Source: Gammaproteobacteria bacterium (GTDB lineage Bacteria; Pseudomonadota; Gammaproteobacteria; SZUA-140). From it: a stretch of 64,000 nucleotides of DNA. How positions within the stretch are numbered: position 1 is the first letter of the stretch; the number at the start of each line of letters is the position of its first letter. A program made the translations under genes and the position numbers. Below are positions 1-60,361 of the stretch, one piece after another. The notes beneath the pieces are model-generated. The model was not told the DNA's origin. It saw only the letters and a list, made by a program, of their open reading frames with translations, and ran no database searches. Location: assembly GCA_016716465.1 (NCBI GenBank), contig JADJWH010000007.1, forward strand, positions 143,427-207,426. The letters run 5' to 3'.

Positions 1-2
1 CG

Positions 3-1783: not shown

Positions 1784-1878
1784 TGCCGAATCGTATCTCA
1801 TGCGCGGGGGCGGCCTTGGCCATCTGAGTGGGGCTTATTCACGTGCCATCGGGTAGAAGGTTGATGTTTGGGGAGCGC

Positions 1879-3105: not shown

Positions 3106-3189
3106 TGGAAATTAATGTTGTAGAATGGGCGGCACCTGGGCGGATTCTGGCTCGAGTATGCCCTAGTCCGTGTTTGGAGTAGTGTAATT

Positions 3190-4878: not shown

Positions 4879-4954
4879 TCGAGACCATCATGATGGGAAA
4901 TTATTCTGTAAAATCATATGATTGTCAGCCCGGCATCCTGGCTTGCGTGGGTGG

Positions 4955-5755: not shown

Positions 5756-5772
5756 ACTGCCCGGCCAATTTT

Positions 5773-6678: not shown

Positions 6679-6777
6679 CCGGTTCCGGCTAGGGATCTCC
6701 CTCGATATTGCGCTTGATCGATATATCCTCCGTACCATCCCGTTTCGCAGGACAACAGACTCATCAGGAGTGCATCA

Positions 6778-7545: not shown

Positions 7546-7549
7546 ATTT

Positions 7550-8749: not shown

Positions 8750-8765
8750 GCGGGTTGGAAATAAC

Positions 8766-9809: not shown

Positions 9810-9832
9810 CAACAAAGAGAGCAGGGTAACCT

Positions 9833-11616: not shown

Positions 11617-11639
11617 TACAAAGCGAGAGTTCTATCACG

Positions 11640-12479: not shown

Positions 12480-12509
12480 TGTATTCCGCTGCAGCAGAGT
12501 TGACACATC

Positions 12510-13871: not shown

Positions 13872-13928
13872 GTGTGCCGGCCGCGGGGCCGCGCTGCCGG
13901 CAGAATCGGCAATGCAGGATCGAATGAT

Positions 13929-36016: not shown

Positions 36017-36096
36017 CCGGGCCCGTGTAAACACACAGCCGCCCTCCGCACGTGGTCTGGCATGCTATCAGTGAAATAGCGGATAATGATATCTCA

Positions 36097-41153: not shown

Positions 41154-41180
41154 GATCGGAACCTACGGCGAAGATAGCGC

Positions 41181-42293: not shown

Positions 42294-42299
42294 GGGGCC

Positions 42300-43493: not shown

Positions 43494-43523
43494 AAAAACG
43501 GGGACAGATTCAAATCCGTCCCC
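43491..43523 (-). terminator. Rho-independent terminator (minus-strand orientation): imperfect 10-bp stem GGGGACAGAT/ATCCGTCCCC followed on the minus strand by a T7 run
   Basis: Read directly. Overlaps the TAA stop of the plus-strand GT gene, so it may act bidirectionally. Confidence 0.4.
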
Positions 43524-43548
43524 ATGCCCATGTGCAATAAAAAAGGGG

Positions 43549-43580
43549 ACAGATTTTTCAATCTGTCCCCGTGTATGCCA
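43549..43580 (-). terminator. Rho-independent terminator for the minus-strand CBM gene: perfect 11-bp stem GGGGACAGATT/AATCTGTCCCC, loop TTTC, followed on the minus strand by TTTTTTATT
   Basis: Read directly. Lies 18 nt downstream of the stop at 43598. Confidence 0.6.
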
Positions 43581-43597
43581 GAAAGAGCTGGCGCGGC

Positions 43598-46324: not shown

Positions 46325-46717
46325 TATATTGATAGCAAATAACTTTCCGGATCGTCTGATGGCGCAGAGAAGATATGCTTGTCAGCCGTTTCTTGAGACG
46401 GGCAAATGAAGGATTCAGTTCCTCACTTTTTGCACGATTGCGACGAGAAAGCCCGATACTTCCACCTCAGGACCCAAAATTGCCAGCCAAAGATACCATG
46501 CGTCGAATTCGTGTGACAACATTCTGACGCCGGATTTTTATGACGATTTTATGGCGATGAATCGGTAAATACGAGGGTTTGCGAGATGGTCTCACGAGTT
46601 TTCGGCAACTGAGTGGAGATCGGGGTTGGATATTCCTTATAGATTTATAGAGGGTGGAGAGCATAAGTTATTATGATTACAGGGAAATGCTTGCATCGAT
46701 CCCGGATTCGGGGAGAA

Positions 46718-46723
46718 TATAAT
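46718..46723 (+). promoter_or_regulatory. TATAAT -10 hexamer in the divergent intergenic region upstream of the sulfotransferase at 46804
   Basis: Read directly. No convincing -35 at 17-bp spacing. Confidence 0.15.
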
Positions 46724-46803
46724 CGGCTCCAGGGCCTTTGAGTTTTCTGGATGCCAGTCTTTACAAGAACAATAAGCAATTAATTATTCAGGGGCTTTTC
46801 GAG

Positions 46804-47751
46804 ATGTCCTTTTTCAACAGAATCAAACGGATTCTCAAGCATGGGCTTGAGGGTGTTCGTGGGGAACAACACCCATTTCTTATCGCATCAGAGCCGATAA
46901 AGGTATCCAGAGAGGCCATCGAGGTAGCGCGGACCATTCGGGGAGAGCGCCCGCCGGCGCTGATCATCCACGGCGTGATGCCAAGGTCCGGAACGGTATA
47001 TACCGGCGAGCTACTGCGTCTGCATCCGGATCTGCACGCCTATCCCAATGAATTATGGGAAGTTCCCTTTCTGGAGCTGACCGGCGATATCCTCAGGACC
47101 CAAGAGCATTTTTTCCGGGCCTACCGGCAGAACATCAGCCGAATGGGTAACAAGGATTTTCTACCCCTGTTCGGTGCCGCGTTCATTGCCTATCTATACA
47201 GCTTCGTCCCCCCCGGCAAGCGCATGCTGCTCAAGATTCCGGATGTGCAGTATTTGAATCATTTCTATACGGTATTTCCCCATGAAACCCCGCTGTTGTT
47301 GCTGCGGGATGGGCGGGATCTGGTGGCCTCGACAATAAACTCCTGGCCGGGTAGACGTTTCGATGAGGTATGTCAATTGTGGGCAAACAGCGCCAGGATG
47401 ATGCTGGCGTTTCAGCGTCAGTATCCGCGGGAGGAATACGAGTACCTGACGATGAAGTACGAAGACGTCGTATTGGCTCCGGAGGCGTTTGTGACCGCCG
47501 CTTGCAAAACTTATGGGCTCGATCAGTCGATATATCCCTATGGCCAGATCAAGGATCTACCGGTCAGGGGATCATCCACGGTAAAGGAATTGCAGAGGGG
47601 GGGCGTGTCCTGGGATCCGATGGATAAGCCGGATAACTTTAAGTCCGTCGGGCATTGGAGCGAGTGGCCGTCAAGCCGGAAGCGTATCTTCAAGGGGATC
47701 TCAGGGCAGGTTCTATTGGAGACGGGTTATTGTAAGGATCTGGACTGGTAA
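46804..47751 (+). CDS. Sulfotransferase family protein
   Basis: 5'-PSB-like loop IIHGVMPRSGTVYTG. LLLRDGRDLVAS 3'-PB-like motif. Start at the internal ATG rather than the track start 46738. Confidence 0.7.
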   Translation: MSFFNRIKRILKHGLEGVRGEQHPFLIASEPIKVSREAIEVARTIRGERPPALIIHGVMPRSGTVYTGELLRLHPDLHAYPNELWEVPFLELTGDILRTQEHFFRAYRQNISRMGNKDFLPLFGAAFIAYLYSFVPPGKRMLLKIPDVQYLNHFYTVFPHETPLLLLRDGRDLVASTINSWPGRRFDEVCQLWANSARMMLAFQRQYPREEYEYLTMKYEDVVLAPEAFVTAACKTYGLDQSIYPYGQIKDLPVRGSSTVKELQRGGVSWDPMDKPDNFKSVGHWSEWPSSRKRIFKGISGQVLLETGYCKDLDW

Positions 47752-48064
47752 TTGATATATAAATGGTGCCGAACAGGCCATGGACAATTTTATCTGCTGG
47801 CTAAAGTTGAGCGGTTTGATATTGATCCAATACTCAGAATCTTTCTCTGTTGAGTTTATAACAAAATAACGCCACGCGTGGTTTCATGTGTTCTATTATC
47901 GCTTTACAACTAATTGATTCCTTTGGCATGTAGTCGGATGCATTAAAGGTTGCCACTGACTAAACGATAGAGGCGGCGTATATGCTATTTGTCGATTATC
48001 CATCCCTCCCAGCACAGCTACATGCTGCGTAACGCATTGGGCTATATAACGTCAGCCTTGTCTT

Positions 48065-48073
48065 GGGGGGGGG
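48065..48073 (+). repeat. Homopolymeric G9 tract in the AT-rich intergenic region upstream of the first island glycosyltransferase
   Basis: Read directly (cttgtcttGGGGGGGGGcactt). It is the longest homopolymer in the window. Confidence 0.9.
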
Positions 48074-48244
48074 CACTTATGTTATGAAAAATGCTCGATT
48101 GATCTGGACACTCTTTGAGGGGAAGGCCACCAGATCATCGGCAAACAGCCAAGTCGTTTTAATGAGTTGAACGCAAGGCATACTTTAAATAGAAGAGTTT
48201 TTCTAAAAGCTTGTGACGAAATTTTCGGAATATGAGACGCTCCA

Positions 48245-49363
48245 ATGCCTTCCAGTGCTAGAAAATTAAAGCTCTGCTTCGTTATTCCCAGCCACTGGGC
48301 GGGAAGTTACGGTGGCGCCGAGCAGCAGGTGCGTCTATTGATCGACGCGCTTATTCAACAAAAGAGGTTCGAGTTAACCTATATCACCAGAAAGGCCAGC
48401 GAGAGCTACAAGCCAGAAGGATACGTCATAGAAAAGGTCAAGTCGGGCTTGCTTGCCGAGAAGCTAGGACTATTTCTCGATGCGCGCGCGCTATTGGCGG
48501 CACTGAACAAGATTAGGCCAGATGTAATATATCAGCGCATGGGGTGTTCATATACAGGAATCGCCGCTTTTTATGCTAAAAAGAACAGCTGCCGAATGAT
48601 TTGGCACATCGCGAACGATGTGAACGTATTGCCATTCCATCTGGATAAAAACAAATCCTATAACATCGTTTCCAGATATCTGGAGAAAAAGATTTTGGAG
48701 TATGGCATAAGGAATAGCGGTGGCATCATCGCGCAAACGAATCAGCAGGCTGAGATGCTCAGGACCTATTATGGTTGTACTGCCGAGCAGGTGATCCCGA
48801 ATTTCCAGCCTATCAGTGTGGCTTCGAGGAAGCGAAATGATTTGATCAAGGTTGTGTGGGTGGCAAATCTCAAGCCTGCAAAACGGCCAGAGCTATTCGT
48901 AAATCTTGCCAATGAATTGCATTCTAATTCCGGGATTGAATTCATAATGATTGGCCGCTCAGGCCATTCGGCCTGGCACAAAGATCTGATGGGCAGGATA
49001 AAGAGCGCCGCCCATCTCAGGTATCTGGGTGAGCTTCCGCAGGATGAGGTCAATGCCATCTTATCGGAGGCACATATTTTCGTGAATACCAGTGAATACG
49101 AAGGCTTCCCCAATACCTTTATTCAGGCATGGATGCGGGAGGTGCCCGTAGTAAGTCTAGAGATAAATCCTGATGGCATTTTTAACGATCGCAGGGTCGG
49201 TTTTTTCTCTGGAAACTATAAGCAGATGTGTGCGGATGTTTTAACGATTGCATCTGATGAGAGGCTGAGATCCGATATGGGGTCGCATGCCAGGAGGCAT
49301 GCCATGAAAAATCATTCTTTGGATAATATTTCCAGAATCATGGAAGTTATCGAGTCTGGATGA
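48245..49363 (+). CDS. Glycosyltransferase family 1 (GT4-type); first gene of the low-GC island
   Basis: VNTSEYEGFPNTFIQAWMREVPVVS E-x7-E motif. Confidence 0.8.
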   Translation: MPSSARKLKLCFVIPSHWAGSYGGAEQQVRLLIDALIQQKRFELTYITRKASESYKPEGYVIEKVKSGLLAEKLGLFLDARALLAALNKIRPDVIYQRMGCSYTGIAAFYAKKNSCRMIWHIANDVNVLPFHLDKNKSYNIVSRYLEKKILEYGIRNSGGIIAQTNQQAEMLRTYYGCTAEQVIPNFQPISVASRKRNDLIKVVWVANLKPAKRPELFVNLANELHSNSGIEFIMIGRSGHSAWHKDLMGRIKSAAHLRYLGELPQDEVNAILSEAHIFVNTSEYEGFPNTFIQAWMREVPVVSLEINPDGIFNDRRVGFFSGNYKQMCADVLTIASDERLRSDMGSHARRHAMKNHSLDNISRIMEVIESG

Positions 49364-49501
49364 ATATTATGGTGATGCCAAAAAGTCTACTGATTCGACT
49401 CTGCCGGTCCGATATCAAGCCCATTACTGGGAATAATCAGAGCACTTAGGGCAAGCACTTTCTAATCGGTCTAGGAAAATGATCGTGGCGGAGTTATTGA
49501 A

Positions 49502-50671
49502 GTGAAGGCAATCTTAAAAAAGATAATATGGATGGACCCAGATCGGTTTGATTTGAAGCCAAATAAAAGTCCGATGATAGAAATGTCGCGGGCTTTGACG
49601 CAGGAGGGATTTGACGTAGTAATCGTGACTGGATACGGAAAGAACCCATATCAGATCAGGGACTCGAGCATTGCTATCGTCAGTCTTTCGTCCATCAATT
49701 TATCCTTTCTGTTCAGATATAGTCTCATGATGAACATGCTGATATGGACGGCTTTCAACGCTAAAAGAGACGATATCTTCATTTTGAACCAGACGACTCT
49801 ACTGCTTTCGCCAGTTTTGCGTCTTCTCGGATTCTCCAATCTTCATCTGGACATTCGCACACTTCCCCTGAGGGCAAATAAATCCTGGAAGAAAAGGATA
49901 GATCGATTCTTGTTCTGGACTTTTCCTCTCATGATGTTTGTTCGATTGGTCAGAAGTTATTCATTTATAACCAACCGATTGAGGCTGGCGATCCAGGAAG
50001 AGTTTAGCATCACATTTGATGATTACGTTATCTGGCAGTCCGGCGTTAATACGAGGGTTTTCAAGCCGATTGAAAATAATAAGGTACGTGCGGCAGATAA
50101 CAGATATACGATTTTTTACCATGGAAGCATCTACGGAAATCGTGGCGTGGATAATCTTATTGATGCGATGTCAATTTTAAGGCCTGCATATAAAGATAAT
50201 GTGCGTCTGGTAATTGTCGGGCCAGTGTTGGATAAGATTGGCTTGGAGGGGCTTATCAATAAGCAAGGATTGAGTGGCACTGTGTTTCTGGAGGGTATGG
50301 TTCCGTATGAAGAAATACCAGAAAGAATAGCGCAGGCGGATTGTTGTGTCTGTCCTTTGCCGGATCTAATCGAATGGAATGTCTCAAGTCCGTTGAAGGT
50401 TTTTGAATACATGGCGTGCGGCAGGCCCATTATATTGACGCCTATCCCCGCGCATAAGGACGTTGCTGATGGCTTGGACTATATCGTATGGGCAAAGGGA
50501 TCTCAGGCCGAGGATCTCAGTAATGCAATAGAGTACGCGTTTGATCACAAGGATGAATTGTCGCAGACGGCTATAAAAGCGTACGACCATGTAAAATCAG
50601 AATATGACTGGGAAGTTCAGGGTAGAAAGTTATCAGAATATCTGCTGAAGCGGCAGCAATTAGATGATTAA
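49502..50671 (+). CDS. Glycosyltransferase family 1 (GT4-type)
   Basis: PLKVFEYMACGRPIILTPIPAHKDV motif. GTG 49502 or ATG 49532 start. Confidence 0.75.
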   Translation: MKAILKKIIWMDPDRFDLKPNKSPMIEMSRALTQEGFDVVIVTGYGKNPYQIRDSSIAIVSLSSINLSFLFRYSLMMNMLIWTAFNAKRDDIFILNQTTLLLSPVLRLLGFSNLHLDIRTLPLRANKSWKKRIDRFLFWTFPLMMFVRLVRSYSFITNRLRLAIQEEFSITFDDYVIWQSGVNTRVFKPIENNKVRAADNRYTIFYHGSIYGNRGVDNLIDAMSILRPAYKDNVRLVIVGPVLDKIGLEGLINKQGLSGTVFLEGMVPYEEIPERIAQADCCVCPLPDLIEWNVSSPLKVFEYMACGRPIILTPIPAHKDVADGLDYIVWAKGSQAEDLSNAIEYAFDHKDELSQTAIKAYDHVKSEYDWEVQGRKLSEYLLKRQQLDD

Positions 50672-52016
50672 CAGGCTAGTTAATTTGATAATTTGCACTG
50701 TATTCTTCTCCAGTTTCCTAGCGTCAAATGTACAGAGAGAGCTTACGCTGCTTCCCGAAGTATTATCCTTCCTTATATTTGTGGTGGTGATTGTTAGGTT
50801 CGCTGCGCACAAGTCGATGTCGCTGAGCCCGAAGTATGTGATACTTGGCATATTGGTTTTTCTACATGTATTGACGGGATTAGTTGTGAACTCGGTTGCG
50901 CCGGGTACCTTGCTAACGGGTCTTCGCCCTTATGTAAAATGGCTGCCAGTGTTTCTTCTGCCAATGGTGTATCCATTTTCAGAAAAGGAAATCAGAAATC
51001 AGCTGAGACTAGTGTTAGTTCTGTCGATAATTCAGTGCCCCATTGCTCTTTATCAGAGATTCGTCCAGTACAGGGGGATGGCTACTGGCGACGTGGTCAC
51101 TGGAACGCTAGGCTTGGGCGCCTCAGGTGTGCTTTCTATTCTTATGCTTTCGGCGATAGCTGTGCTGTTAGCATATTTCATCAGAGAAAAGATACGTGCC
51201 GGGGCATTCGTTATTATATTGTGCATCCTGTTCTTGCCAACGATGATCAATGAAACAAAAGCTACGCTGGTACTTTTGCCTATCGTATTGATTATTCCAT
51301 ATCTATATGCATCCAGAAAAAAACTGTCAGCACTGCAGCTAGTAAGTATATCCGCAATATCCTTGTCACTATTGATTGGGTTCGTATATGTCTATGACCA
51401 GATTTCGGGTCAATTGGGGCGTGGAGCCAGCATTCTAGAATTTATAACCTCAGATCGCAGCACTTCTTATCTTTATAGTCAAAAAGAACTCTACAAAGAG
51501 AAGGACTTGTTGGAGCGTATTCAGATTGGCAGTATGGAACTCCCTAGAGATGTAATAGGTAGCAAAGAAGGTGGTGGTAGGATCGACAAAATACTTCTCC
51601 CGATTAATGTATTTTCTGATCGACCGTTAAAATTGTGGCTCGGACTTGGGGTGGGAAATGTATCGACCTCGATCCTAAATGTATTTTCCGGAGAGTATGC
51701 CGTACGTCTGGGCGCGGTTAGCGGCGAAATGCTGTTAACATTATTGTTGTGGGAAACAGGTGTTGGTGGCGTAATCCTCTTCGTTTTGTTTCTAATTTTC
51801 CTAATCGTTGATGCACATAAATTGTCGAGGTCGGGTGACTCTAGTGCAATTTTGGCATCTGGATGGCTGGGAGTATTGGCAGTTATTCTCATAGCTATGA
51901 CTTATATCAACATGTTTTATTTTAATACGTTGATATTCATGTTTTCTTATTTTTCTGGTTATGTGGCAGCAAAATCCGCATCCTTGAGATACAATTTTCA
52001 CAAAGAGAGCAGATGA
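50664..52016 (+). CDS. Polytopic membrane protein, O-antigen polymerase/ligase-like (Wzy family)
   Basis: About 10-12 predicted TM helices with a large periplasmic loop near the C-terminal third. 8-bp overlap with the upstream GT. Confidence 0.55.
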   Translation: MINRLVNLIICTVFFSSFLASNVQRELTLLPEVLSFLIFVVVIVRFAAHKSMSLSPKYVILGILVFLHVLTGLVVNSVAPGTLLTGLRPYVKWLPVFLLPMVYPFSEKEIRNQLRLVLVLSIIQCPIALYQRFVQYRGMATGDVVTGTLGLGASGVLSILMLSAIAVLLAYFIREKIRAGAFVIILCILFLPTMINETKATLVLLPIVLIIPYLYASRKKLSALQLVSISAISLSLLIGFVYVYDQISGQLGRGASILEFITSDRSTSYLYSQKELYKEKDLLERIQIGSMELPRDVIGSKEGGGRIDKILLPINVFSDRPLKLWLGLGVGNVSTSILNVFSGEYAVRLGAVSGEMLLTLLLWETGVGGVILFVLFLIFLIVDAHKLSRSGDSSAILASGWLGVLAVILIAMTYINMFYFNTLIFMFSYFSGYVAAKSASLRYNFHKESR

Positions 52017-52023
52017 GCGCGTC

Positions 52024-53139
52024 ATGAAAAAATATGCGTTCATCAAGATCAGGTCGAACCATGCCATTATTGACCAGATCATTAAAATCTTGGCGCATAC
52101 ATTTCCTGACTATCAATTGGATGTTATCGATATAAAAGACATTTTAAGGAATAAAATATTTTATGTATTTATTAATTTATTTCACGTTATAAAAATCTAT
52201 GGTTTCTCGACAATATTTGAAAGTAAGAGCGTTATTTATAACCGATTCTTTGGTACTCCCTATATGTATCATGTGATCAGTCGCCTGCTGGATTCTCATA
52301 TAGCGAAGGGTTATGCATTTACTATTCAAGATTGCTCGTTGTTCAACGGGAAGCAGCGTGATATCCCAAATTTCGTATATACAGATCATACGGTTCTAGC
52401 CAATAAAAACTACCCTTCCTATGATGAAAAAAGAGATTTGCTGGCGGAATCGTGGATAAACCTTGAGCGTAATATCTACAGCGAAGCAAGTATGGTGTTT
52501 ACGCGTTCTGAGGCGATCCGTAATTCGGTGATAAATGATTATTCTTGCGACCCTAGTAATGTTGAATGCGTTTATTTTGCGCCATTCATTACAACTAGGA
52601 GCGGGGTTGTAAATGCTGAAAAATACAAGAGAAAGAAGATATTATTTGTCGGCATTGAGTGGGAGAGGAAGGGTGGGCCTCAGTTGGTTGAGGCGTTCAA
52701 GCAGGTGCTGGAGGTCATTCCTGATGCCAGCCTAGTTGTCGTTGGTTGTGCTCCCACCATTTTGTTACCTAACGTGGAAGTGATTGGTCTTGTCGATAAA
52801 GAATACTTACCGCTCTATTATGAAAATGCCTCGGTATTTTGTTTGCCTACCCAACGCGAGCCATTCGGAATAGTCTTTATCGAAGCTATGAGCTACTCAT
52901 TGCCAGTTATAGGAACCAATATCGGTGCTCTTCCAGAGTTCATCCATGATGGCATCAATGGATATAAGGTCAATACTGGCGATGTAGACAGGTTGTCAGC
53001 TCTGCTCATAGAGCTGTTATCTGACCCGATCAAATGCGAACAATTAGGGAAAATGGGCTATGGTATCTACCATGAGAAATTTACGTTGGAAGGAGTTTCA
53101 TCTCTGCTCAACCACCATATAAGTCGGTTTATTGTATGA
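52024..53139 (+). CDS. Glycosyltransferase family 1 (GT4-type)
   Basis: FCLPTQREPFGIVFIEAMSYSLPVIGTNIGALPEFI motif. Confidence 0.8.
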   Translation: MKKYAFIKIRSNHAIIDQIIKILAHTFPDYQLDVIDIKDILRNKIFYVFINLFHVIKIYGFSTIFESKSVIYNRFFGTPYMYHVISRLLDSHIAKGYAFTIQDCSLFNGKQRDIPNFVYTDHTVLANKNYPSYDEKRDLLAESWINLERNIYSEASMVFTRSEAIRNSVINDYSCDPSNVECVYFAPFITTRSGVVNAEKYKRKKILFVGIEWERKGGPQLVEAFKQVLEVIPDASLVVVGCAPTILLPNVEVIGLVDKEYLPLYYENASVFCLPTQREPFGIVFIEAMSYSLPVIGTNIGALPEFIHDGINGYKVNTGDVDRLSALLIELLSDPIKCEQLGKMGYGIYHEKFTLEGVSSLLNHHISRFIV

Positions 53140-53218
53140 TTTCTAAGTGTTTAAATAAGTAAATGTGCGTGTCTCTATTATAATGGCTGAACTTTGAAAT
53201 AAGAATATTTCTAATCCA

Positions 53219-54442
53219 TTGTCGAATCTACTATCAATCAATAATTATTATTACTTCCGCGGCGGTGCGGAAGCGGTATTTCTGAGGCAAAATGCCTTGT
53301 TTGAAAGTATGGGTTGGCGCGTGGCGCCATTCTCTATGCGCCATTCGAATAATATTGATTCTCCTTGGTCGGACTACTTTGTCGAGGAAATTGAGTTCGG
53401 ATCAGAATATTCCCTATGGGGGAAAATTCGGCGTGTTCCGAAGGTGGTTTATTCTCTTGAGGCGCGGAGAAGGGTGCGCAGGCTGCTTGATGTATTTCCT
53501 GCTGATATATGCCATGCCCATAATATTTATCACCATATCTCTCCATCGATATTGCATCTGATCAAGCAGCGTGGCATTCCGATCGTCATGACACTTCATG
53601 ACCTGAAGCTCGCCTGCCCTGCATATAACATGCTTGCCAATGACGGTATTTGCGAGCGCTGTAAGGATGGCCGGATATATAACGTCCTACGTCACAGTTG
53701 CATAAAAGGTTCAGTGACTCTGAGCGCGGTAGTCATGGCCGAAACCCTACTCCACCGAGCATTGAAAACATTCGAGCGGCACATAGACAGGTTTATTGTT
53801 CCCAGTCATTTTTATATGGCTAAGCTGGCTGAATGGGGTTGGGATAAGTCACGGTTTTTGTACATTCCCAACGCACTCGATGTGGAGACATTCAGCGTTG
53901 ATTATGTTCCAGGAAAATCATTTGTATATTTTGGAAGGCTAAGTCGGGAAAAGGGTATTTCGACCTTAATCAAGGCCGCCTCTATTGCTGGCGTGTCTTT
54001 GACGATTGTAGGGACTGGCCCTGACGAACACCTACTACGGAAACTCTCTAAAGATGAAGGGGCAGATGTTACGTTTCTGGGCTACCTGAAGGGGCAGAAG
54101 TTGCATGATGTTGTCCGTTCTGCCCGTGCGGTTGTGCTACCCTCGGAGTGGTATGAGAATGCGCCATTGTCTGTTATGGAAGCCTATGCATTAGGCAAGC
54201 CAGTTATTGGTGCCACGATAGGTGGCATCCCAGAATTGATACAGAATGGGATAACAGGCGCCACGTTTGAATCGGGTTCTATCAGAGAACTAGCGGAAAT
54301 ATTGGCCCGATTTTCCTGTCTTCCGGACTCGGATATGTCCAACATGGGGCATGCTGGACGTTCTTGGATAGAAAGGGAATTCAACATGGACCAGTATGGA
54401 TCTAGGATGCTGAGTTTGTATCGGGAGCTTGGAGTTCAATGA
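53219..54442 (+). CDS. Glycosyltransferase family 1 (GT4-type)
   Basis: N-terminal INNYYYFRGGAE. C-terminal LPSEWYENAPLSVMEAYALGKPVIGATIGGIPE. TTG start as in the ORF track. Confidence 0.75.
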   Translation: MSNLLSINNYYYFRGGAEAVFLRQNALFESMGWRVAPFSMRHSNNIDSPWSDYFVEEIEFGSEYSLWGKIRRVPKVVYSLEARRRVRRLLDVFPADICHAHNIYHHISPSILHLIKQRGIPIVMTLHDLKLACPAYNMLANDGICERCKDGRIYNVLRHSCIKGSVTLSAVVMAETLLHRALKTFERHIDRFIVPSHFYMAKLAEWGWDKSRFLYIPNALDVETFSVDYVPGKSFVYFGRLSREKGISTLIKAASIAGVSLTIVGTGPDEHLLRKLSKDEGADVTFLGYLKGQKLHDVVRSARAVVLPSEWYENAPLSVMEAYALGKPVIGATIGGIPELIQNGITGATFESGSIRELAEILARFSCLPDSDMSNMGHAGRSWIEREFNMDQYGSRMLSLYRELGVQ

Positions 54443-54494
54443 ATATAGTTCTAATAGCAGAAGCTCGCAACGGTGAAAAGGGTTTCAGTAATTG

Positions 54495-55616
54495 ATGCGC
54501 ATAATGGTGCTAGGCCTTCGTGGGTTCCCTAATGTCCAGGGAGGCGTGGAGCAACATGCTGAGCAATTGTATCCTTTGCTAGCTAAGTTGGGTTGCCACA
54601 TCGATGTAATTGCACGTTCACCCTATGTGCCGCGCGAGCTTCGGATGTGGAATGGCATTACTTTTCACCGATTATGGGCGCCAAGGATCAGGGGGCTGGA
54701 AGCGCTGATACATTCCTTGATCGGGGTATTCTATGCCGGCATCAAGAGGCCTGATATCTTGCACATTCATGCTGTTGGCCCTGCGATCATTGCGCCACTC
54801 GGTAGAGCGCTAGGACTTAGGGTTGTGGTCACGCATCATGGTCCGGATTATGATCGCGAAAAATGGGGAAGGTCAGCGCGTTGGTTACTTCGGCTAGGTG
54901 AGAAGTGGGGTATGCTCTGTGCGAATCAGAGGATTGTCATCTCCAAAGTGATTAGAAAGCTGGTGTTCGATAAATATCGTCTCGATTCAGTTGTTATCCC
55001 AAATGGTGTCACTCTCCCAAAAATTCCTGAGACCAAGGAAACGCTGGGGCGATTTTCGCTGGTTGCTAAGAGATATATTTTGTTGGTTAGCCGCTTTGTG
55101 CCAGAAAAGAGGCATCTCGACTTAATTGAAGCCTTTGCCATGTCCAGACTTTTGGATTGGAAGCTGGTGTTGGTTGGAGAGGTGGATCGCCGCGACAGGT
55201 ATTGCATGAAGGTGCTATCTTCCGCCGAGCAGATCCCGGGTGTGGTAATCACAGACTTTCAATTTGGCCAAGCACTACAGGAGTTATATTCGTATGCTGG
55301 TCTCTTTGTATTGCCATCATCGCATGAAGGGCTTCCGATTGCTTTGCTTGAGGCATTAAGCTACGGATTACCCGTGCTGGCAAGTGATATACCCGCCAAT
55401 CTGGAAGTCGGCCTTCCGGAAACTAATTACTTTCCCCTTGGGAATGTCGCCATACTCGCCGGGGTATTGTGCGAGCGGGCTGTTGAGCAGTCAGATGGCG
55501 CACAGCGGGAGAGGTTACGTGCATGGGTTAGTGAGCGTTATTGCTGGACAGAGGTGGCGCAACGTACATTGGATACTTATAAAAAAGTATTAAGAAGGTC
55601 TAAGATATATTGGTAG
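54495..55616 (+). CDS. Glycosyltransferase family 1 with N-terminal DUF1972-type domain
   Basis: MRIMVLGLRGFPNVQGGVEQHAEQL N-terminal signature. PSSHEGLPIALLEALSYGLPVLASD C-terminal motif. Confidence 0.8.
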   Translation: MRIMVLGLRGFPNVQGGVEQHAEQLYPLLAKLGCHIDVIARSPYVPRELRMWNGITFHRLWAPRIRGLEALIHSLIGVFYAGIKRPDILHIHAVGPAIIAPLGRALGLRVVVTHHGPDYDREKWGRSARWLLRLGEKWGMLCANQRIVISKVIRKLVFDKYRLDSVVIPNGVTLPKIPETKETLGRFSLVAKRYILLVSRFVPEKRHLDLIEAFAMSRLLDWKLVLVGEVDRRDRYCMKVLSSAEQIPGVVITDFQFGQALQELYSYAGLFVLPSSHEGLPIALLEALSYGLPVLASDIPANLEVGLPETNYFPLGNVAILAGVLCERAVEQSDGAQRERLRAWVSERYCWTEVAQRTLDTYKKVLRRSKIYW

Positions 55617-55717
55617 TTGCCTAGATCCAAAGCTTAAGAATAAGCTCTGGTCTGCGCGGTTATTCTGATGTGGTCAATCTCTAAGAGGAGCTATGTGAGG
55701 AACACCAAGGGGGTGTT

Positions 55718-57232
55718 ATGGGCCTTGTTTATCGATTTCAGAATAATAAAAAATTTTTTATAGAAAAAGGGCAGTCAGAAAAAAACCATATAAAAGTATT
55801 TTTAGGAAATAAACTATCTTCTGAGCATGATCCAACCGCAGATGGAATATGGGCGGAATGGGAGTGGGATGGGATTGAATTTAGATTTTCCAATGATAGG
55901 CTTGGATTTTACCCGATCTATTATTACAGTTATGAAGGAAAGTTTGGTATCTCCACGTCTATAATTGATCTTGTTGAGAAAGGGGACGTCCCTCTGGATC
56001 TCGACGATCAAGCAGTGGCATTCTTTATAAGAATGGGATTTTTTCTCGCTGATGACACCCCATTTAAATACATTCATAGTGCGCCACCAGCCTGTAGTAT
56101 TAAATGGAAAGATGGGAGAGTGGAGGTATTTACAAAAGGGTGTATATCATCACAGATAGCAGTCGGGTTATCTAGAGGGGCGGCGATCAAAGAGTATGGA
56201 GAGAGATTTCAGAATGCTATTAATAATACAACTCCTGATAAGAACGAAAAGGTTGGTGTCCCGTTAAGTGGTGGAAGGGACTCGAGGCATATTGCCTTGG
56301 CATTATATGAGGGTGGGGTAAATATACATTCGTTTTTGACTGTTAATAAGGGCCAGGATTTGACAGTCTCTCGCCAAGTAGCGCGTGAGTTGGGAATAGC
56401 TCAGTCAGTTATATATCAAAAGGGGTCTAGATTCGGGCAAGAAATTCGTAAGAATTATCTTACCAGTTTTTGTGCTGATGAGCATGCATGGGCTTTAGGC
56501 TTGGCCAATTCTATTGAAGAAAATCGATACACGGTTATTTATGATGGGATTGGTGGTGATGTTTTATCTGCGAGCGCGTTCCTCAATGAAAGGAGATTAG
56601 ATTTATATAGAAAGGAAAAGTTAGAGCAACTGGCAGAGCATCTAATGATAGACGAAGGTTATATACGATATTCTCTGCCAGAGGATTTTTATCAACGATT
56701 TAGCCGTGAACGAGCGGTCAATAAATTAACGGAGGAGTTAAGGAAGCATGTAAACACGCCAAATCCTGTTTCGCAATTCTTTTTTTGGAATAGAACGAGG
56801 AGAGAAATAGCATTATTGCCATGGGGTCTCTATAGGCGGGATATCAAAATTATGGCTCCTTATTTAATGAAAGGTATCTATGACTTTCTAACAGGATTGC
56901 CTGCCGAGTATATGCTCAACCGTCAATTCCATGAGCAAGCTATAAATAATCAATATGCTAAACACAGTCATATCCCTTATGAGGATAAGTCGGTATCTAC
57001 ACAAAGATTGTGTAAGCAATTTATTAAGACATTCAGAGAGGCGAGATTAATTAAAAACTATATTAATTATATTTCTATCTCTGGCGTCAAGAAATTTGAT
57101 ATCGGACTCGGGGCGCATTTCATAAAGCTGATTGGCATGTACTCAATGGCCCGCTCAAATGATCAATTCTTAAATTCCTTGAGAAGGATCATTTGGTTGG
57201 TACAGCTGTTGAGCCTACAGAAAATAAAGTAG
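55718..57232 (+). CDS. Asparagine-synthase-related amidotransferase (AsnB C-terminal synthetase domain; N-terminal domain lacks the Cys2 nucleophile)
   Basis: PP-loop VGVPLSGGRDSRHIA. N-terminus MGLVYRF... instead of MCGI. Similar to WbpS-like O-antigen sugar amidotransferases. Confidence 0.65.
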   Translation: MGLVYRFQNNKKFFIEKGQSEKNHIKVFLGNKLSSEHDPTADGIWAEWEWDGIEFRFSNDRLGFYPIYYYSYEGKFGISTSIIDLVEKGDVPLDLDDQAVAFFIRMGFFLADDTPFKYIHSAPPACSIKWKDGRVEVFTKGCISSQIAVGLSRGAAIKEYGERFQNAINNTTPDKNEKVGVPLSGGRDSRHIALALYEGGVNIHSFLTVNKGQDLTVSRQVARELGIAQSVIYQKGSRFGQEIRKNYLTSFCADEHAWALGLANSIEENRYTVIYDGIGGDVLSASAFLNERRLDLYRKEKLEQLAEHLMIDEGYIRYSLPEDFYQRFSRERAVNKLTEELRKHVNTPNPVSQFFFWNRTRREIALLPWGLYRRDIKIMAPYLMKGIYDFLTGLPAEYMLNRQFHEQAINNQYAKHSHIPYEDKSVSTQRLCKQFIKTFREARLIKNYINYISISGVKKFDIGLGAHFIKLIGMYSMARSNDQFLNSLRRIIWLVQLLSLQKIK

Positions 57233-57243
57233 CTTGACGATTT

Positions 57244-58215
57244 CTATTTGTGAGGCGGCTGGATTTGGCTGCTGCGAGCATAACGCAAATAGCCGAGGCT
57301 TCGCGCGAAAGAATTCTTCAGCCAGCGCGCCTGAACCTCGGGTGCCCGCATTTTTATATTTGGCCCTTCATCAGAGATGAGGTCGTTTCGCACATCGTGG
57401 AGTGTGAGCATTTTCATGATGCCCTGCAAATAGCCTGACTTTTTAATACGAAGAGCTACCAGTTCCTCCAATTGCGGATCATTGATCTGCTTATAGTAAA
57501 TAGTACGTAATTCTTGTGTGACAGCAGTCCGGTTGTTATTGGTTCTTTCTTCAAAATTGGCAGCAGAACTCTGATCTTGAAGGTGTACTCGCGCCGACTC
57601 GTTTCCAAACAGAAGATGGTGTTTCTTGTGCCAGAACTTCTCTTTTCCCTCGAAATAAGGTATGCCTAAGTAGCAACAAATATTCTCAAGCACTGCTGGG
57701 TCTCGTGTATAGTCGGAGTAGGGTACGGAGCGCCAGTCAGCTATCTTGGTTGTATATAGACGAAAATAGTTTATCCACGAACTCTCCCATTTGTCGTAAC
57801 CTTTGCCCCGCTTTTTTAATGAATGCGCGTATTCTAGAGGGGTTTTCCATATAACAATATGCTTGGTTTCAATGCCGGACTTTCTAAGAAGCTTCGACTG
57901 ATAGTTAATCCAAAAGGGATCCTTGCTGGAATCAATGATAAACCTTACCTCAGGTTTAAGTTCGAAGATCTTGTTATAGAGATTCTGCTTCCCCGCGGCG
58001 CGCACTTGTGACCAGAAGTTACAATTTATTTCTCCGCATCCACATATTGGATCTATATGGTGTGCGCGATAGGGGTGAATCAGTGCATTGACTTCCCCGG
58101 TTGAGAACCCAGCAGGATCATTTCCCAGCGTCATGTCAAAAAAGGTAGAACCACTAAATGCGGTTCCCCCAACAAAGATCAGTTTTCTTTCTGTCATTTG
58201 AGTTATTACCATCAA
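57244..58215 (-). CDS. P-loop sulfotransferase-like protein
   Basis: N-terminal LIFVGGTAFSGSTFF loop and overall size resemble Stf0/Sulfotransfer_3 proteins. Weaker motif match than the other five. Confidence 0.5.
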   Translation of the reverse strand: MMVITQMTERKLIFVGGTAFSGSTFFDMTLGNDPAGFSTGEVNALIHPYRAHHIDPICGCGEINCNFWSQVRAAGKQNLYNKIFELKPEVRFIIDSSKDPFWINYQSKLLRKSGIETKHIVIWKTPLEYAHSLKKRGKGYDKWESSWINYFRLYTTKIADWRSVPYSDYTRDPAVLENICCYLGIPYFEGKEKFWHKKHHLLFGNESARVHLQDQSSAANFEERTNNNRTAVTQELRTIYYKQINDPQLEELVALRIKKSGYLQGIMKMLTLHDVRNDLISDEGPNIKMRAPEVQARWLKNSFARSLGYLRYARSSQIQPPHK

Positions 58216-58872
58216 TGGGGATGTTCTTTGGAGGGATATTTTTTAGATAAATCAGCCAGATTTTCCGGAGGCGCTGCCATGGTTGTACTTTTCTGGTTTA
58301 AAGTATTTTTCTATTAGTTTCGGCTGATTTATATGCACTGCATTTATGAGTTGGCGGAAATTGGTTATATAGATTTTTATGCATTTGTGAGGCATATGAT
58401 TATGTTACAGTTTGCTCGATTGGGTTCTATATTTTCTGTGTGGCATATGCGAGTGACTTGTGGTGCTCGATGAAACACAGCTTTGCTCTTGAAAAATTTT
58501 CCGCGATGTTCCTGTAGAGAAATTCGTTATAGATGGGTGGCAAATAATCTCGATAAGGCAGAGCATTGGCGATAACGATCAGAATATCTGTTATTTGAAT
58601 CGGAAGGAAACTTCATCTGGCCAATATAGCGTACAGGAAGGATAAACGCCCCTTTTCGTATCCGTCAACCAGTTATTCACGGGGGGAGTGTTTAGATAGT
58701 TCATTGTTGTTACATCCAAGAAACGGCAACGGGAGCCGAATGTGAGGTGATGACGTACTTGCTTCAATGATGAGTCTGGGGCAGGGTCGGATAGTATTCG
58801 TATGCAGCCCGAGCCAGTTCAAGGAGCTAGTTGTGCTTGTATTATGAAATACCCTTTGAAGCTCCAACAGAC

Positions 58873-60342
58873 TCAGGGTTCATATCCTGGGGGCAGATAT
58901 GGGAAAGCAAATGTTCCTGGTGGCCCGAATGTATCAAGTGCCTGGTGAACCTCTTCAAGAGTCGGCGGGTTATTGTGCCAAGGGGTGTCCCATGATACAG
59001 CAAGATTATGGACGGGCATTATGCCGGGTGGGTCTTCGCCGGCCCGGCCTAGCCCAGAATTCCTCTTTGCCGGATCTGTCGCTTTTGGCGAGCCCGAGAG
59101 CGCCCATACAATATGGGAAAATGTCTGTGGCACAGTTACATTGCTGTAATTCCATGGATTGGGAATGCCAGCTGCAAAGAAAGTGGTTTCTCTCTGTCCG
59201 TTACTTTCAGTCGCCTGCGACAGAAATCTAATATCCTTCTGATAAACGCCATTCAGGTCATTAAACCTGGTCGCGCTAGTGAAATTATCTGTTCCCACCA
59301 TTTTCATGTCAGGGAAGTTCGCACCCATGTGTGGGTTGTTCATATATTGCCAGCGTATATCAAGCCCCCCCCCTACCAGGGTCGACTGTGTTACATAGAT
59401 GCCAGATGCCGCATAAATCTCTGCAATCTTTCTGTTAAGCAGGCTCATGCCATGATAATAGTCTGTTGAGTTGTAATCGCTGGGGAGATTACCTGACGGC
59501 TCCGCTTCTGGACAGCGTATAAACATGACCTTGTTTATATTGCCAGTTGCAACTAAATGGTCATACATTGCTTTGACAAAGATTAAAATCTCATCGATTA
59601 CATATGGCGCAGTGCCTCTGTTTCTTAGTCCTCTAGCATCAGGCCCAGAATATCGATAGAACTTGGGAACCCAATGTGACGTTCCATCAGTGCTCCAAAC
59701 GGCATCATACGGAGCTGCATTTAACCACGCCGGAGTGCTGGGACTGTTTCCCCACGAAACTACTCCTAGATTAAGTACCAGGAGCGCCCCTTCGTTTTGT
59801 ACTGCATTGATTTTAAATGCTGCATCAAGAAGGCTCCAATCATATCCCGGGTCAGTGTGATTTGCCGGATTAGAGGGTCTGATATTCTGGTTGGTGTAAT
59901 ATCTCCACATGCGTAAGGGAAATACTATCCCACCATATACCCCGGGTGGCCGATATGAGGCTTTGCGATTCGGGCTGGTGGTAAATAAGGCCTGCCACTT
60001 AGATTCCATGAGGGAAGGGGAAGGATTTTCTTCCGATGTATCCACCACGATGCCGGGGCGGAATTTCAAATTTGTTCCGGGGAATACTCCGGATTGGCTA
60101 CTTGATACATTTGCAGCAGAGGAATTGCTGGAAGCGGCACATTGAATCCCCTCCGAGTGTTCGATGCATATGTCCGTCGGCGTCGTCGGAGGAGCTGCTG
60201 GGGCCGCTCCAATCGAGCTTGCCAGTAGGAAGATCAGAAGATAGAGGGATTGTTTCAACATGATAGGTTTTGTGCTCGTATCTGGATAAACGAAGGGGTG
60301 TGCGTCGCGGCGCATGGATATGCTCATGTTCTTGTCATGCAT
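58873..60342 (-). CDS. Secreted hypothetical protein (low-GC), possibly a glycan hydrolase; co-transcribed downstream of the CBM6 lipoprotein
   Basis: Signal peptide MLKQSLYLLIFLLASSIGAA (an alternative start is at 60261). No motif recognised by eye. 20-bp gap to the upstream gene. Confidence 0.45.
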   Translation of the reverse strand: MHDKNMSISMRRDAHPFVYPDTSTKPIMLKQSLYLLIFLLASSIGAAPAAPPTTPTDICIEHSEGIQCAASSNSSAANVSSSQSGVFPGTNLKFRPGIVVDTSEENPSPSLMESKWQALFTTSPNRKASYRPPGVYGGIVFPLRMWRYYTNQNIRPSNPANHTDPGYDWSLLDAAFKINAVQNEGALLVLNLGVVSWGNSPSTPAWLNAAPYDAVWSTDGTSHWVPKFYRYSGPDARGLRNRGTAPYVIDEILIFVKAMYDHLVATGNINKVMFIRCPEAEPSGNLPSDYNSTDYYHGMSLLNRKIAEIYAASGIYVTQSTLVGGGLDIRWQYMNNPHMGANFPDMKMVGTDNFTSATRFNDLNGVYQKDIRFLSQATESNGQRETTFFAAGIPNPWNYSNVTVPQTFSHIVWALSGSPKATDPAKRNSGLGRAGEDPPGIMPVHNLAVSWDTPWHNNPPTLEEVHQALDTFGPPGTFAFPYLPPGYEP

Positions 60343-60361
60343 TGGCAGGTTGTTCTCAGTC

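Follow-up and report, generated by a model that had tools for sequence, protein, structure and literature searches.

A strain-variable low-GC cassette, probably horizontally exchanged, in a probably Wzy-dependent exopolysaccharide locus of an uncultured gammaproteobacterium

The 64-kb stretch of DNA analysed here (the window) carries a high-GC exopolysaccharide (EPS) locus into which some 12.6 kb of low-GC DNA, rich in glycosyltransferase genes, is set. How did this block come to lie in this locus: has it always been resident there, was it misjoined in assembly, did a mobile element bring it in, or is it exchanged between strains? We consider it highly probable that the region from ~47.6 to 60.35 kb forms the centre of a Wzy-dependent EPS locus, a cassette that varies between strains and is exchanged horizontally, and that it came from a lower-GC relative by homologous recombination.

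Composition of the block

The region 47752-60361 has a GC content of 44.3% (0.443), against 59.0% (0.590) in the remaining window. Plotted in 1-kb windows, GC runs at 0.57-0.64 between 40 and 46 kb, falls to 0.385-0.50 between 47.5 and 60.5 kb and then returns to 0.57-0.60. The plot confirms the discontinuity at ~47.75-60.35 kb that an earlier, sequence-only reading of this DNA had pointed out, with corrected figures: the drop is from ~59-61% to a mean of ~44%, with a minimum of 38.5%, and not from 62% to 40%. Codon usage also changes sharply. The nine island genes have a third-position GC (GC3) of 0.366-0.552, whereas the other 32 genes of the window range from 0.636 to 0.817; the host-referenced codon adaptation index (CAI) is 0.40-0.54 and 0.60-0.79, respectively, and the Karlin codon bias, with the host gene set as reference, is 0.45-0.76 and 0.19-0.42. 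Host segments differ from one another by dinucleotide signature distances (x1000) of 37-69, but from the island by 115-152; the island signature is nearly the same as that of L093, a related low-GC locus (distance 29). By all three measures (codon bias, CAI against the host set and dinucleotide signature) the island differs from its host and falls beside the low-GC loci L093 and L005.

Low GC might simply come with this class of genes. By this account, which we judge unlikely, the cassette is resident and vertically inherited, and relaxed codon selection, membrane-protein composition or AT-binding silencers made it AT-rich with no horizontal acquisition. Indeed, the cassette core lies below its flanks in GC in 46 of 47 related loci, the alternative cassettes of the close relatives L094 and L096 (see below) are low in GC too, this gene order is the ancestral one in the wider clade, and wzx and wzy often stand lowest in GC, a pattern for which an explanation has been called for (PMC3715488). 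However, the usual GC deficit of the homologous core against its flanks is 0.02 rather than 0.14 (median 0.021 and maximum 0.113 in the 47 loci; 0.138, the most extreme value, in the window). The core tracks local GC across these loci, which span 32-68% GC (for example, 0.680 vs 0.681), and in high-GC hosts the resident cassette is high-GC as well (0.65-0.68). Intrinsic AT-richness is not a trait of the cassette gene family, and the GC3 drop affects the soluble enzymes too, not the membrane protein alone. As the alternative cassettes and nearly all related cores share the shortfall, AT-richness may in part be a general property of such cassettes and not the mark of one recent transfer. We propose that the composition of the cassette has not yet moved towards host values.

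Gene content of the conserved locus and of the cassette

The initiating polyprenyl-phosphate sugar-1-phosphate transferase is encoded in the conserved part of the locus, outside the cassette. It is of the WcaJ type (15-866; TIGR03023, WcaJ_sugtrans, 460 bits against a cut-off of 410.75) and is followed by genes for a Wza-like Poly_export/SLBB (OPX) protein (1157-1783), a Wzz/GNVR (PCP) protein (3190-4878), a tyrosine-kinase-like ATPase (4922-5755) and an ABC-2 transporter pair (11613-13871); three further GT4 genes are found at 39957-43493, where GC is high. The conserved part would supply a glucose-1-phosphate transferase, chain-length regulator, tyrosine kinase and outer-membrane export proteins, and also several sulfotransferases and CBM6 and FG-GAP surface proteins. 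No MOP/Polysacc_synt domain indicative of a Wzx flippase was found in any of the 41 annotated window genes; the flippase may be encoded beyond the 64 kb.

The cassette was described as bordered by CBM6 lectin genes on either side, which holds on the right; on the left a sulfotransferase gene stands between the CBM6 gene and the island. The left CBM6 gene (43598..46324, minus strand; Pfam CBM_6 x4, E 1e-70; GC3 0.817) is conserved host DNA and encodes a secreted protein with four CBM6 modules, whose amino-acid identity is 99.85% in L094 (a short-read contig from another sample), 83% in the sister lineage L096 and 81.5% in the relative SJ243 (L004). The conserved sulfotransferase gene that follows (46804..47751, plus strand; Pfam Sulfotransfer_3, E 4e-14), the left anchor in which the crossover is found, is 95%, 83% and 85% identical at the protein level in the same three relatives; it has intermediate GC (GC3 0.645), and its homologues in relatives are likewise lower in GC than their neighbouring genes. 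The right anchor (60362..62890, minus strand; Pfam CBM_6 x2, fn3) encodes a lipoprotein that combines two CBM6 modules with an fn3 domain, and lectin-like homologues occupy the same position in the related loci L010 (43%) and L093 (40%). Its GC3 is 0.70 overall and goes down to 0.58-0.63 in the last 120 codons, on the island side.

The cassette opens with a 493-bp AT-rich spacer (47752..48244, GC 0.42), which is probably the promoter region of the plus-strand glycosyltransferase operon; its first 110 nt are 84% identical to the DNA after the SJ243 sulfotransferase gene, up to an IS5 insertion in SJ243. The interval holds five GT4 genes, not six as first counted, all on the plus strand. GT4-a (48245..49363; Pfam Glycos_transf_1 and Glyco_transf_4; GC3 0.552) has homologues of 41-54% identity in L005, L010 and L093, and GT4-b (49502..50671; Glyco_trans_1_4, E 1e-20; GC3 0.495) is 67% identical in L093 and 55% in L010. 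GT4-c (52024..53139; Glycos_transf_1, E 3e-30; GC 0.399, GC3 0.435) is an accessory gene, with clear homologues (47-52%) only in L093 and L013 among the fetched loci. GT4-d (53219..54442; GC3 0.48) and GT4-e (54492..55616; GC3 0.507), both assigned by Pfam, belong to the conserved core of the cassette family and reach 54-63% and 54-66% identity, respectively, in the best-matching related loci.

Between GT4-b and GT4-c lies the gene for a polytopic membrane protein (50664..52016, plus strand; GC3 0.443) that had been called Wzy-like. We found no Pfam or NCBIfam match for this protein, Wzy_C models included. Its AF2 model (pLDDT 91.6) agrees with the call: it has the WaaL/Wzy (O-antigen ligase/polymerase) fold, with WaaL as the top Foldseek match in the PDB (7tpg_B, E 1.6e-5, TM 0.54/0.59), followed by FtsW. 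We presume from this model that the protein is the repeat-unit polymerase, although the fold fits a polymerase and a ligase alike.

The gene at 55718..57232 (plus strand; Pfam Asn_synthase, E 7e-6) has the lowest GC3 of the island (0.366) and no homologue in any fetched locus. Its product, taken at first for an AsnB-like amidotransferase, is AsnB-like in its synthetase (ATP-pyrophosphatase) domain only: residues 42-326 match positions 121-412 of TIGR01536, and the N-terminal Cys2 glutaminase domain is absent (the protein starts MGLVY, and position 2 is not Cys). It may be an enzyme that amidates sugar carboxylates. On the minus strand follows a divergent sulfotransferase-family gene (57244..58215), in keeping with the suspected sulfotransferase-like protein. 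Alone, its product matches only Sulfotransfer_3 (E 0.005); a profile built with six homologues matches the CurM sulfotransferase (4gbm, E 4e-17) and TPST1/2 (~1e-10), and all seven members of the family match Pfam Sulfotransfer_3. The copy in the window has WKTP in place of the RDGR motif. The last cassette gene (58873..60342, minus strand), formerly a secreted hypothetical, encodes a secreted protein with a (beta/alpha)8 fold (TIM barrel) like that of glycoside hydrolases of clan GH-A. The family of this protein is very small and undescribed, and its presumed role is to process or trim the polymer. AT-rich spacers had been reported at both ends of the island, and the left one stands. On the right, only 19 bp separate the start of this last gene (60342) from the stop of the CBM6-fn3 gene (60362), and the other long spacer (58216..58872, 657 bp, GC 0.419) is internal; it has no recognisable content, and neither tblastx nor blastn matched it to any of 102 fetched loci.

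We propose that the five GT4 enzymes, the WaaL/Wzy-fold polymerase, the AsnB-like modifying enzyme, the divergent sulfotransferase and the glycosidase-like protein would jointly determine how the repeat unit is built. The cassette would also define the sugar backbone, on which the sulfation and lectin proteins of the host would act, and the product of the locus is probably a sulfated matrix polymer.

Crossover sites and alternative cassettes

The left flank of the window is 99.2% identical in nucleotide sequence to L094 over 3.3 kb, with 27 differences in the 3,344 nt left of position 47667. The 84 nt to the right of this position hold 30 differences (36% divergent; Fisher p = 1.3e-35). The left recombination breakpoint between window and L094 lies within 47507..47667, in the sulfotransferase gene, and we suggest that the left crossover by which the cassette entered fell in the final ~85-245 nt of that gene. 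In its last 88 nt, identity is 58/88 between window and L094, 74/88 between window and SJ243 and 72/88 between L094 and L096; the alleles of this 3' tail cross-cut the relatedness of the flanks, pairing the window with SJ243 and L094 with L096.

Homology of the window with both L094 and L096 ends at 47753. Beyond the sulfotransferase stop, L094 continues into unrelated DNA of 0.43 GC with a methyltransferase-like gene and a Sulfotransfer_1 gene. The sister lineage (80-83% flank identity) has a third arrangement at the same site: in L096-L100 (83% sulfotransferase identity) a Sulfotransfer_1 gene and a GT4 gene come after the same point, and the longer contigs L096-L097 run on into a gene for a Wzy-like protein (34% identity), two further GT4 genes and a transposase of the IS3 type. 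Close relatives thus carry different central gene sets next to a conserved left flank, as expected of the variable, serotype-switch-like cassette that had been proposed from sequence alone. A strain with a near-identical flank and a sharp breakpoint to another cassette argues against vertical residence. On the left side, an exchange of L094-type against window-type cassettes between near-clonal DNA is largely shown.

The same site is where assemblies tend to end. In SJ243, in SJ336 and in the Logan assemblies, contigs stop at or near it; a short-read contig from the source sample breaks at 47653, 15 nt ahead of the first allele difference, and no short-read contig from that sample crosses either junction by more than ~100 nt. 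The source is a metagenome-assembled genome (MAG), and lower-GC relatives with the same locus type exist and could co-occur with it, so assembly or binning might have fused a low-GC fragment of another organism to a high-GC contig, with the homologous sulfotransferase gene as the point of joining. We regard this as extremely unlikely. Two independent false joins would be needed, because host-like high-GC DNA resumes at 60362, and the record contig is 226 kb long. SJ243, a 63%-GC relative, has the same sulfotransferase tail allele contiguous with the first 110 nt of the spacer, and L002 joins the spacer at 47752-48244 to the cassette at 100% identity. Moreover, in L094 and L096-L100, assembled independently from other samples, low-GC cassettes come directly after the sulfotransferase gene.

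The right crossover would lie at or near the CBM6-fn3 lectin gene. As in the sequence-only reading, which had recognised no integrase, tRNA or IS element at the borders, we found no integrase, transposase or IS among the window ORFs scanned with Pfam, no tRNA, tmRNA or Rfam family in the window, and neither direct repeats pairing the two island borders nor terminal inverted repeats at them. The features of an integrase-mediated island (integrase or recombinase, tRNA/tmRNA site, flanking direct repeats) are therefore missing from this block. The island has no phage matches, and its plasmid matches show only weak GT4 similarity. These results make it very unlikely that the block is a mobile element (an integrative element, a phage remnant or an IS-bounded composite transposon) that entered by site-specific recombination or by transposition, although an IS5-type transposase lies 110 nt after the SJ243 sulfotransferase gene, the IS3-type one is present in L096, and an rve fragment adjoins the cassette in L010. 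With no integrase, tRNA or flanking repeat, exchange by homologous recombination is the reading we prefer, and a left border inside a conserved gene with graded divergence is typical of that process.

Donor type and likeness to known loci

The nearest relatives of the island genes are cassettes of lower-GC uncultured bacteria: L093 (0.42), L005 (0.45; named Gammaproteobacteria) and L010 (0.50). In these loci, gene order and flanking gene types are as in the window and composition is uniform, so donors were probably lower-GC relatives with the same locus type. The order common to L005, L010, L093 and a JGI contig, some of which end before one end of the locus, is GT4_42k and/or sulfotransferase, GT4-a, usually GT4-b, Wzy, optionally GT4-c, then GT4-d, GT4-e, a minus-strand gene and a minus-strand lectin. 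Identities to L010 and L005 are similar for island genes (36-63%) and host genes (52-64%), and these two loci alone are therefore no proof of transfer.

The best homologue of the window Wzy, P0001 (80% identity), is encoded on the 17,042-bp JGI contig. The sulfotransferase attributed to this contig, by matching protein length, source and contig size rather than by direct look-up, is 63% identical to that of the window; the two genes are thus very probably neighbours. Judged from these sequences, a Wzy at 80% beside a sulfotransferase at 63% is phylogenetically incongruent, which again speaks against a resident cassette. Wzy is less conserved (36-38% identity) than the sulfotransferase (51-56%) in the vertically related loci L005, L025 and L027. 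Composition, donor-type relatives and variability together support horizontal acquisition.

The cassette is a further case of a well-known kind of exchangeable polysaccharide cassette, and the serotype switching familiar from O-antigen and capsule loci has its counterpart here in an environmental bacterium. O-antigen clusters have a low-GC centre and graded GC in adjoining genes, and are replaced whole by recombination in the flanks without an integrase (PMC3715488). As in the galF-gnd region (rfb) of Salmonella enterica and E. coli, a low-GC block of glycosyltransferase, wzy and modification genes lies between conserved genes, and the sulfotransferase gene takes the role of the graded flank gene. 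Unlike O-antigen, the product here would be an exported, probably sulfated EPS and not LPS. The PCP/OPX export genes are XrtA/PEP-CTERM-like, the flanks are CBM6 lectin-like and sulfotransferase genes, the window holds neither wzx nor a JUMPStart/ops element, and the host is an uncultured gammaproteobacterium known from metagenomes only.

Capsule loci are exchanged whole between lineages, species and even genera (PMC7305143). Like the cps/K loci of Klebsiella, other Enterobacterales, Acinetobacter and Streptococcus pneumoniae, this locus would be Wzy-dependent; its export and initiation genes are conserved while its centre varies, and its cassette is closer across lineages than the adjoining flank gene. 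In capsule loci, however, the variable block usually lies between export and sugar-nucleotide genes, whereas here it is ~40 kb downstream of the export module, past a conserved sulfotransferase/sulfatase/FG-GAP/CBM6 stretch. The best NCBIfam matches of the export, chain-length, kinase, ATPase and several GT4 genes are to families of the XrtA/PEP-CTERM system, whose EPS loci carry EpsB-EpsH-like modules. Apart from the WcaJ-type transferase, these matches stay below the curated cut-offs (bits/cut-off: pepcterm_export 143/180, ChnLen 255/279, TyrKin 158/231, ATPase 296/324), and there is no exosortase in the 64-kb window, nor was a PEP-CTERM protein noticed there.

Serotype-like cassette switching has been worked out in pathogens; these results indicate that it also takes place between strains of an uncultured, metagenome-only bacterium, whose MAG may come from activated sludge. 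Low-GC, strain-variable blocks of this kind will tend to be lost or mis-assigned when such organisms are binned from metagenomes, and EPS chemistry predicted from one MAG may fail for the species; the 3' end of the sulfotransferase gene offers a defined marker for tracking EPS types in communities. We also put forward, tentatively, a wider possibility: that uncultured Gammaproteobacteria 15-20 GC points apart share a common pool of AT-rich cassettes, exchanged at one fixed crossover hot-spot at the 3' end of the sulfotransferase gene, that strains with alternative cassettes co-exist in one community, and that diversifying selection on the sulfated matrix polysaccharide, whether as a phage receptor or as a ligand of the locus's own CBM6 lectins, maintains them. 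The cassette also brings to light two uncharacterised protein families, that of the WaaL-fold membrane protein and the small GH-like family.

Composition of the low-GC cassette

The sequence-only reading had described a drop in GC inside a high-GC exopolysaccharide locus, and this drop is borne out by sliding-window GC, GC3, Karlin's bias, codon adaptation and dinucleotide signature, each of which separates the island from the host genes. In 1-kb sliding windows GC is 0.57-0.64 across 40-46 kb, 0.385-0.50 across 47.5-60.5 kb (rising locally to 0.50 at 54-55.5 kb), and is back at 0.57-0.60 past 60.5 kb, so that positions 47752-60361 have 44.3% GC versus 59.0% in the remaining window. The nine island genes have GC3 values of 0.366-0.552 as compared with 0.636-0.817 in the other 32 genes; measured against the host gene set, their Karlin's bias is 0.45-0.76 (host genes, leave-one-out: 0.19-0.42), and their host-referenced CAI is 0.40-0.54 (host genes: 0.60-0.79). 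Between island and host segments the distance in dinucleotide signature (x1000) is 115-152, versus 37-69 among host segments. An AT-rich spacer of 493 bp (47752-48244) forms the left border, and the right border is very sharp, with the low-GC gene starting at 60342 and the high-GC CBM6 gene ending with its stop at 60362. Pseudogene remnants were sought in the AT-rich spacers and none were found.

It is possible that a low GC content is intrinsic to this class of genes, and a small general effect of this kind is known for O-antigen clusters (PMC3715488). We compared 47 related loci, each with at least 6 kb of flank, and in 46 of these the core is indeed lower in GC than its flank; however, the deficit has a median of only 0.021 and a maximum of 0.113, while that of 0.138 in the window is the largest seen. 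Moreover, the family is found in genomes of 32%-68% GC, and its core follows the local GC (e.g., 0.680 versus 0.681). The small general effect therefore exists but cannot explain the step in the window.

A milder second step is present elsewhere in the window, where GC is 0.52-0.58 in positions 1-15000 and 0.58-0.67 in 15000-46000, with a smaller contrast in GC3 (0.64-0.74 versus 0.68-0.82). These first 15 kb contain the export module, sugar-nucleotide genes and the ABC-2 transporter.

Probable exchange at the boundary sulfotransferase gene

Scanning GTDB species genomes with the high-GC GT4 gene at 42300-43493 gave two close metagenome-assembled genomes, SJ336 (86% amino acid identity) and SJ243 (77%), and the distant L005 (53%). 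The SJ243 contig (L004, GC 0.63) is collinear with the window over 29.5-47.86 kb at 75-88% amino acid identity, and since this collinearity includes the left-flank CBM6x4 gene (43598-46324, minus strand) and the sulfotransferase gene at 46804-47751 (plus strand), the latter belongs to the conserved flank. The GC of this boundary sulfotransferase gene is intermediate, both in the window and in every relative examined. Nucleotide homology to SJ243 extends 110 nt beyond the sulfotransferase stop, where it is followed by an IS5-type DDE transposase gene (L004 18199-19161, minus strand) and the contig end. SJ243 also carries an extra AsnB-like gene of 630 aa (L004 11563-13455, plus strand) between its orthologues of the 42300-43493 GT4 gene and the CBM6x4 gene. 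In the window no more than 104 bp of spacer separate these two genes, so that the 'conserved' flank, too, differs by indels of single genes.

We then used the boundary sulfotransferase as a query and fetched the contigs of its closest homologues. One of these, L094 (SRR21707659), is 98.3% identical to window positions 44324-47753, and its CBM6x4 protein is 99.85% identical. The differences between the two are very unevenly distributed: 27 in 3,344 nt to the left of position 47667 (0.8%), and 30 in the last 84 nt of the sulfotransferase gene (36%; Fisher p = 1.3e-35 in a breakpoint scan). Past the sulfotransferase stop L094 is unrelated to the window; a methyltransferase-like and a Sulfotransfer_1 gene lie there, at a GC of 0.43. 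Five further contigs (L096-L100), from two groups of SRA runs (SRR277103xx and SRR238149xx), have a sulfotransferase of 83% identity, followed in all five by a Sulfotransfer_1 gene and a GT4 gene. In L096, whose DNA is 80-83% identical to the window, homology ends at the same position as in L094, and the shared gene lists place the change at this point in L097-L100 as well. In the two longest contigs, L096 and L097, these are followed by a Wzy-like gene (34% identity), another GT4 gene, an inverted GT4 gene (43% to the first island GT4) and an IS3-type transposase gene. This alternative block is also lower in GC than its flank (GC3 of 0.47-0.67 versus 0.84). The proposed variability of the locus is thus supported on its left side, as L094 and L096-L100 carry other gene sets after the same sulfotransferase.

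Over the last 88 nt of the sulfotransferase gene the window resembles SJ243 (74/88 identical) and L094 resembles L096 (72/88), while in the remainder of the gene the window and L094 are identical at 850 of 860 positions. Because the tail alleles cross the relatedness of the flanks, there are at least two tail-plus-cassette types, distributed across rather than along the flank relationships. Homologous exchange that recurs, with its crossover near the 3' end of the sulfotransferase gene, is expected to give such a distribution.

Short-read (Logan) contigs of SRR11674018 match the window at 99.9-100%, with L002 covering 47653-57658 and L001 covering 41910-43850. L002 starts 15 nt ahead of the first difference between the sulfotransferase tail alleles (47668), which is what a branch in the de Bruijn graph would give if strains with both cassette types co-occur in the source sample.

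A chimeric assembly join is an unlikely origin of the island. It would take two false joins, as host-like sequence resumes at 60362; SJ243 has the same tail allele, with the first 110 nt of the island spacer adjoining its own sulfotransferase gene; this spacer is joined to the cassette on L002; and low-GC cassettes occupy the same site in independent assemblies of other samples.

The sequence-only reading had recognised no integrase, tRNA or IS element at the borders, in agreement with our tRNA search and with the scanned ORFs of the window, among which there was no integrase or transposase. Searches for Rfam families and for repeats pairing the borders were also negative, and no ops/JUMPStart element was found near the island. 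A mobile-element origin was considered and rejected: there were no phage matches, and plasmids gave only weak GT4 similarity (68% matches of the fourth and fifth island GT4 genes to Sinorhizobium megaplasmids, and nothing else). Since none of these elements were found and the left border lies inside a conserved gene, we conclude that the cassette was probably exchanged by homologous recombination.

At the right border, GC3 of the CBM6-fn3 gene (60362-62890, minus strand) goes down to 0.58-0.63 over its last 120 codons, and the adjoining low-GC gene has a GC3 of 0.62 in its first 60 codons. These shifts suggest a right junction near 60.3-60.7 kb. No exact match was found for the sulfotransferase (TTG start), the secreted protein, the CBM6x2-fn3 protein or protein P0002, and the only one for the small fn3-like protein was a contig of the same sample (L102, window ~62160-65564), which stops short of the right junction.

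IS elements occur at or in the variable region of SJ243 and L096 (in the latter an IS3-type element with HTH_Tnp_1 and rve domains, L096 9423-10759, minus strand), and none in the window.

Relatives of the cassette and known systems

Homologues of the island's Wzy-like protein number 50 in the protein collection, and 213 loci were recovered from JGI metagenomes; a metagenome scan for DNA of the closest cassette gave at best only 48% identity. The closest Wzy homologue (80%) is encoded on a JGI contig of 17,042 bp (sample 3300056388), in the order GT4 (398 aa), Sulfotransfer_3 (315 aa), GT4, GT4, Wzy, GT4, GT4, GT4, a 511-aa protein, a methyltransferase, an ATP-grasp protein and two minus-strand genes. 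The order equals that of the window, but the CBM6x4 gene is missing and two accessory genes are different. A JGI sulfotransferase of 315 aa, likewise from a contig of 17,042 bp, shares only 63% identity with that of the window, and we infer that it is the one on this contig, because protein length, source and contig size agree. The opposite pattern is seen in L005, L025 and L027 (sulfotransferase 51-56%, Wzy 36-38%), whose loci look vertically related.

Host-side genes, island genes or both have homologues, in window order and with near-uniform composition, in each of three lower-GC relatives: L093 (GC 0.42, Wzy 60% identical), L010 (GCA_023266115.1, GC 0.50, Wzy 50%) and the Gammaproteobacteria MAG L005 (GC 0.45). 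The dinucleotide signature of the island is nearest to L093 (distance 29, versus 115-152 to the host), and its codon usage to L093 and L005.

O-antigen and capsule loci are known to combine a low-GC glycosyltransferase/wzy block with a gradation of GC in the flank gene next to it and with replacement via recombination in conserved flanks (PMC3715488; PMC7305143), and the locus in the window fits this pattern. The pattern itself is thus already described, but the setting differs: the host, an uncultured gammaproteobacterium, is known from a metagenome alone, many genes of its locus are for sulfotransferases, sulfatases and lectin-like proteins, the crossover site is a sulfotransferase gene, and the Wzy-like and GH-like families (50664-52016 and 58873-60342) are undescribed.

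Genes of the cassette and of the surrounding locus

The cassette encodes five GT4 glycosyltransferases (48245-49363, 49502-50671, 52024-53139, 53219-54442 and 54492-55616) rather than the six initially counted. The membrane protein at 50664-52016 (plus strand) has no Pfam or NCBIfam match, and its earlier designation as Wzy-like is justified at the level of the fold, because the best PDB match of its AlphaFold model (built from 44 homologues, pLDDT 91.6) is the O-antigen ligase WaaL (7tpg_B, E 1.6e-5, TM 0.54/0.59), followed by FtsW. Among the invariant motifs of this family are N196-E197 and a G-x-G-x-G run (G327, G329, G331). Of the 450 codons of the ORF, the NCBI record covers no more than 312, and its 312-aa protein is 100% identical to that part.

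The product of 55718-57232 is AsnB-like, as had been claimed, but strictly speaking is no glutamine amidotransferase: its match is confined to the synthetase half of asparagine synthase (TIGR01536 positions 121-412), and Cys2 is absent. The proposed sulfotransferase-like protein (57244-58215, minus strand) gave a Sulfotransfer_3 match of E 0.005 as a single sequence, and its identification holds up in a profile with six homologues from related loci, which matches the CurM sulfotransferase (E 4e-17) and tyrosylprotein sulfotransferases (~1e-10). The RDGR of this family is replaced by WKTP in the window copy. The secreted protein at 58873-60342 (minus strand) belongs to a family that has a clan GH-A-like TIM barrel and is very rare, with 40 clusters among 1.84 billion representatives, some homologues being fused to Malectin, fn3 or cadherin domains; its conserved 'NEG' (residues ~183-185) and 'TE' (~379-380) are candidate catalytic residues. 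Promoter-like and terminator-like sites were not clearly above shuffled expectation.

The remainder of the window forms a single large exopolysaccharide locus. It encodes a WcaJ-type undecaprenyl-phosphate glucose phosphotransferase whose score exceeds the curated cut-off. Its OPX, chain-length, tyrosine-kinase and ATPase genes are similar to XrtA/PEP-CTERM families, with scores that all fall short of the cut-offs of those families. The locus further contains sugar-nucleotide genes and an ABC-2 transporter pair. ASPIC/FG-GAP proteins, one GT2 and three high-GC GT4 genes are also present, as are four sulfotransferases of the conserved part in addition to the one at the boundary. CBM6 proteins flank the island on both sides, and no Wzx flippase was found within the 64 kb.

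A sulfatase domain occurs together with three CBM6 modules, Ig-like repeats and a GDSL esterase domain in one secreted protein of 2,376 aa (22243-29373, minus strand), a fusion that is unusual in an exopolysaccharide biosynthesis locus and suggests polymer remodelling by desulfation or deacylation. One FG-GAP protein with CBM6 and three ASPIC/UnbV (CRTAC1-like) FG-GAP proteins (within 16894-20694, plus; 29567-33801, minus; and 36052-38154, plus) are interleaved with the sulfotransferases of the conserved part and are kept in SJ243. Long ORFs opposite the CBM6 genes (43571-45667, plus, 698 aa; 61166-62053, plus, 295 aa) overlap genes that have strong Pfam matches and for this reason were taken, on visual inspection, for high-GC shadow ORFs. 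In the right-flank gene, the two CBM6 modules form an 82%-identical direct repeat of 300 nt (60670-60969 and 61195-61494), and short-read contigs of the locus break at such module repeats, both at this pair and at the four modules of the left flank.
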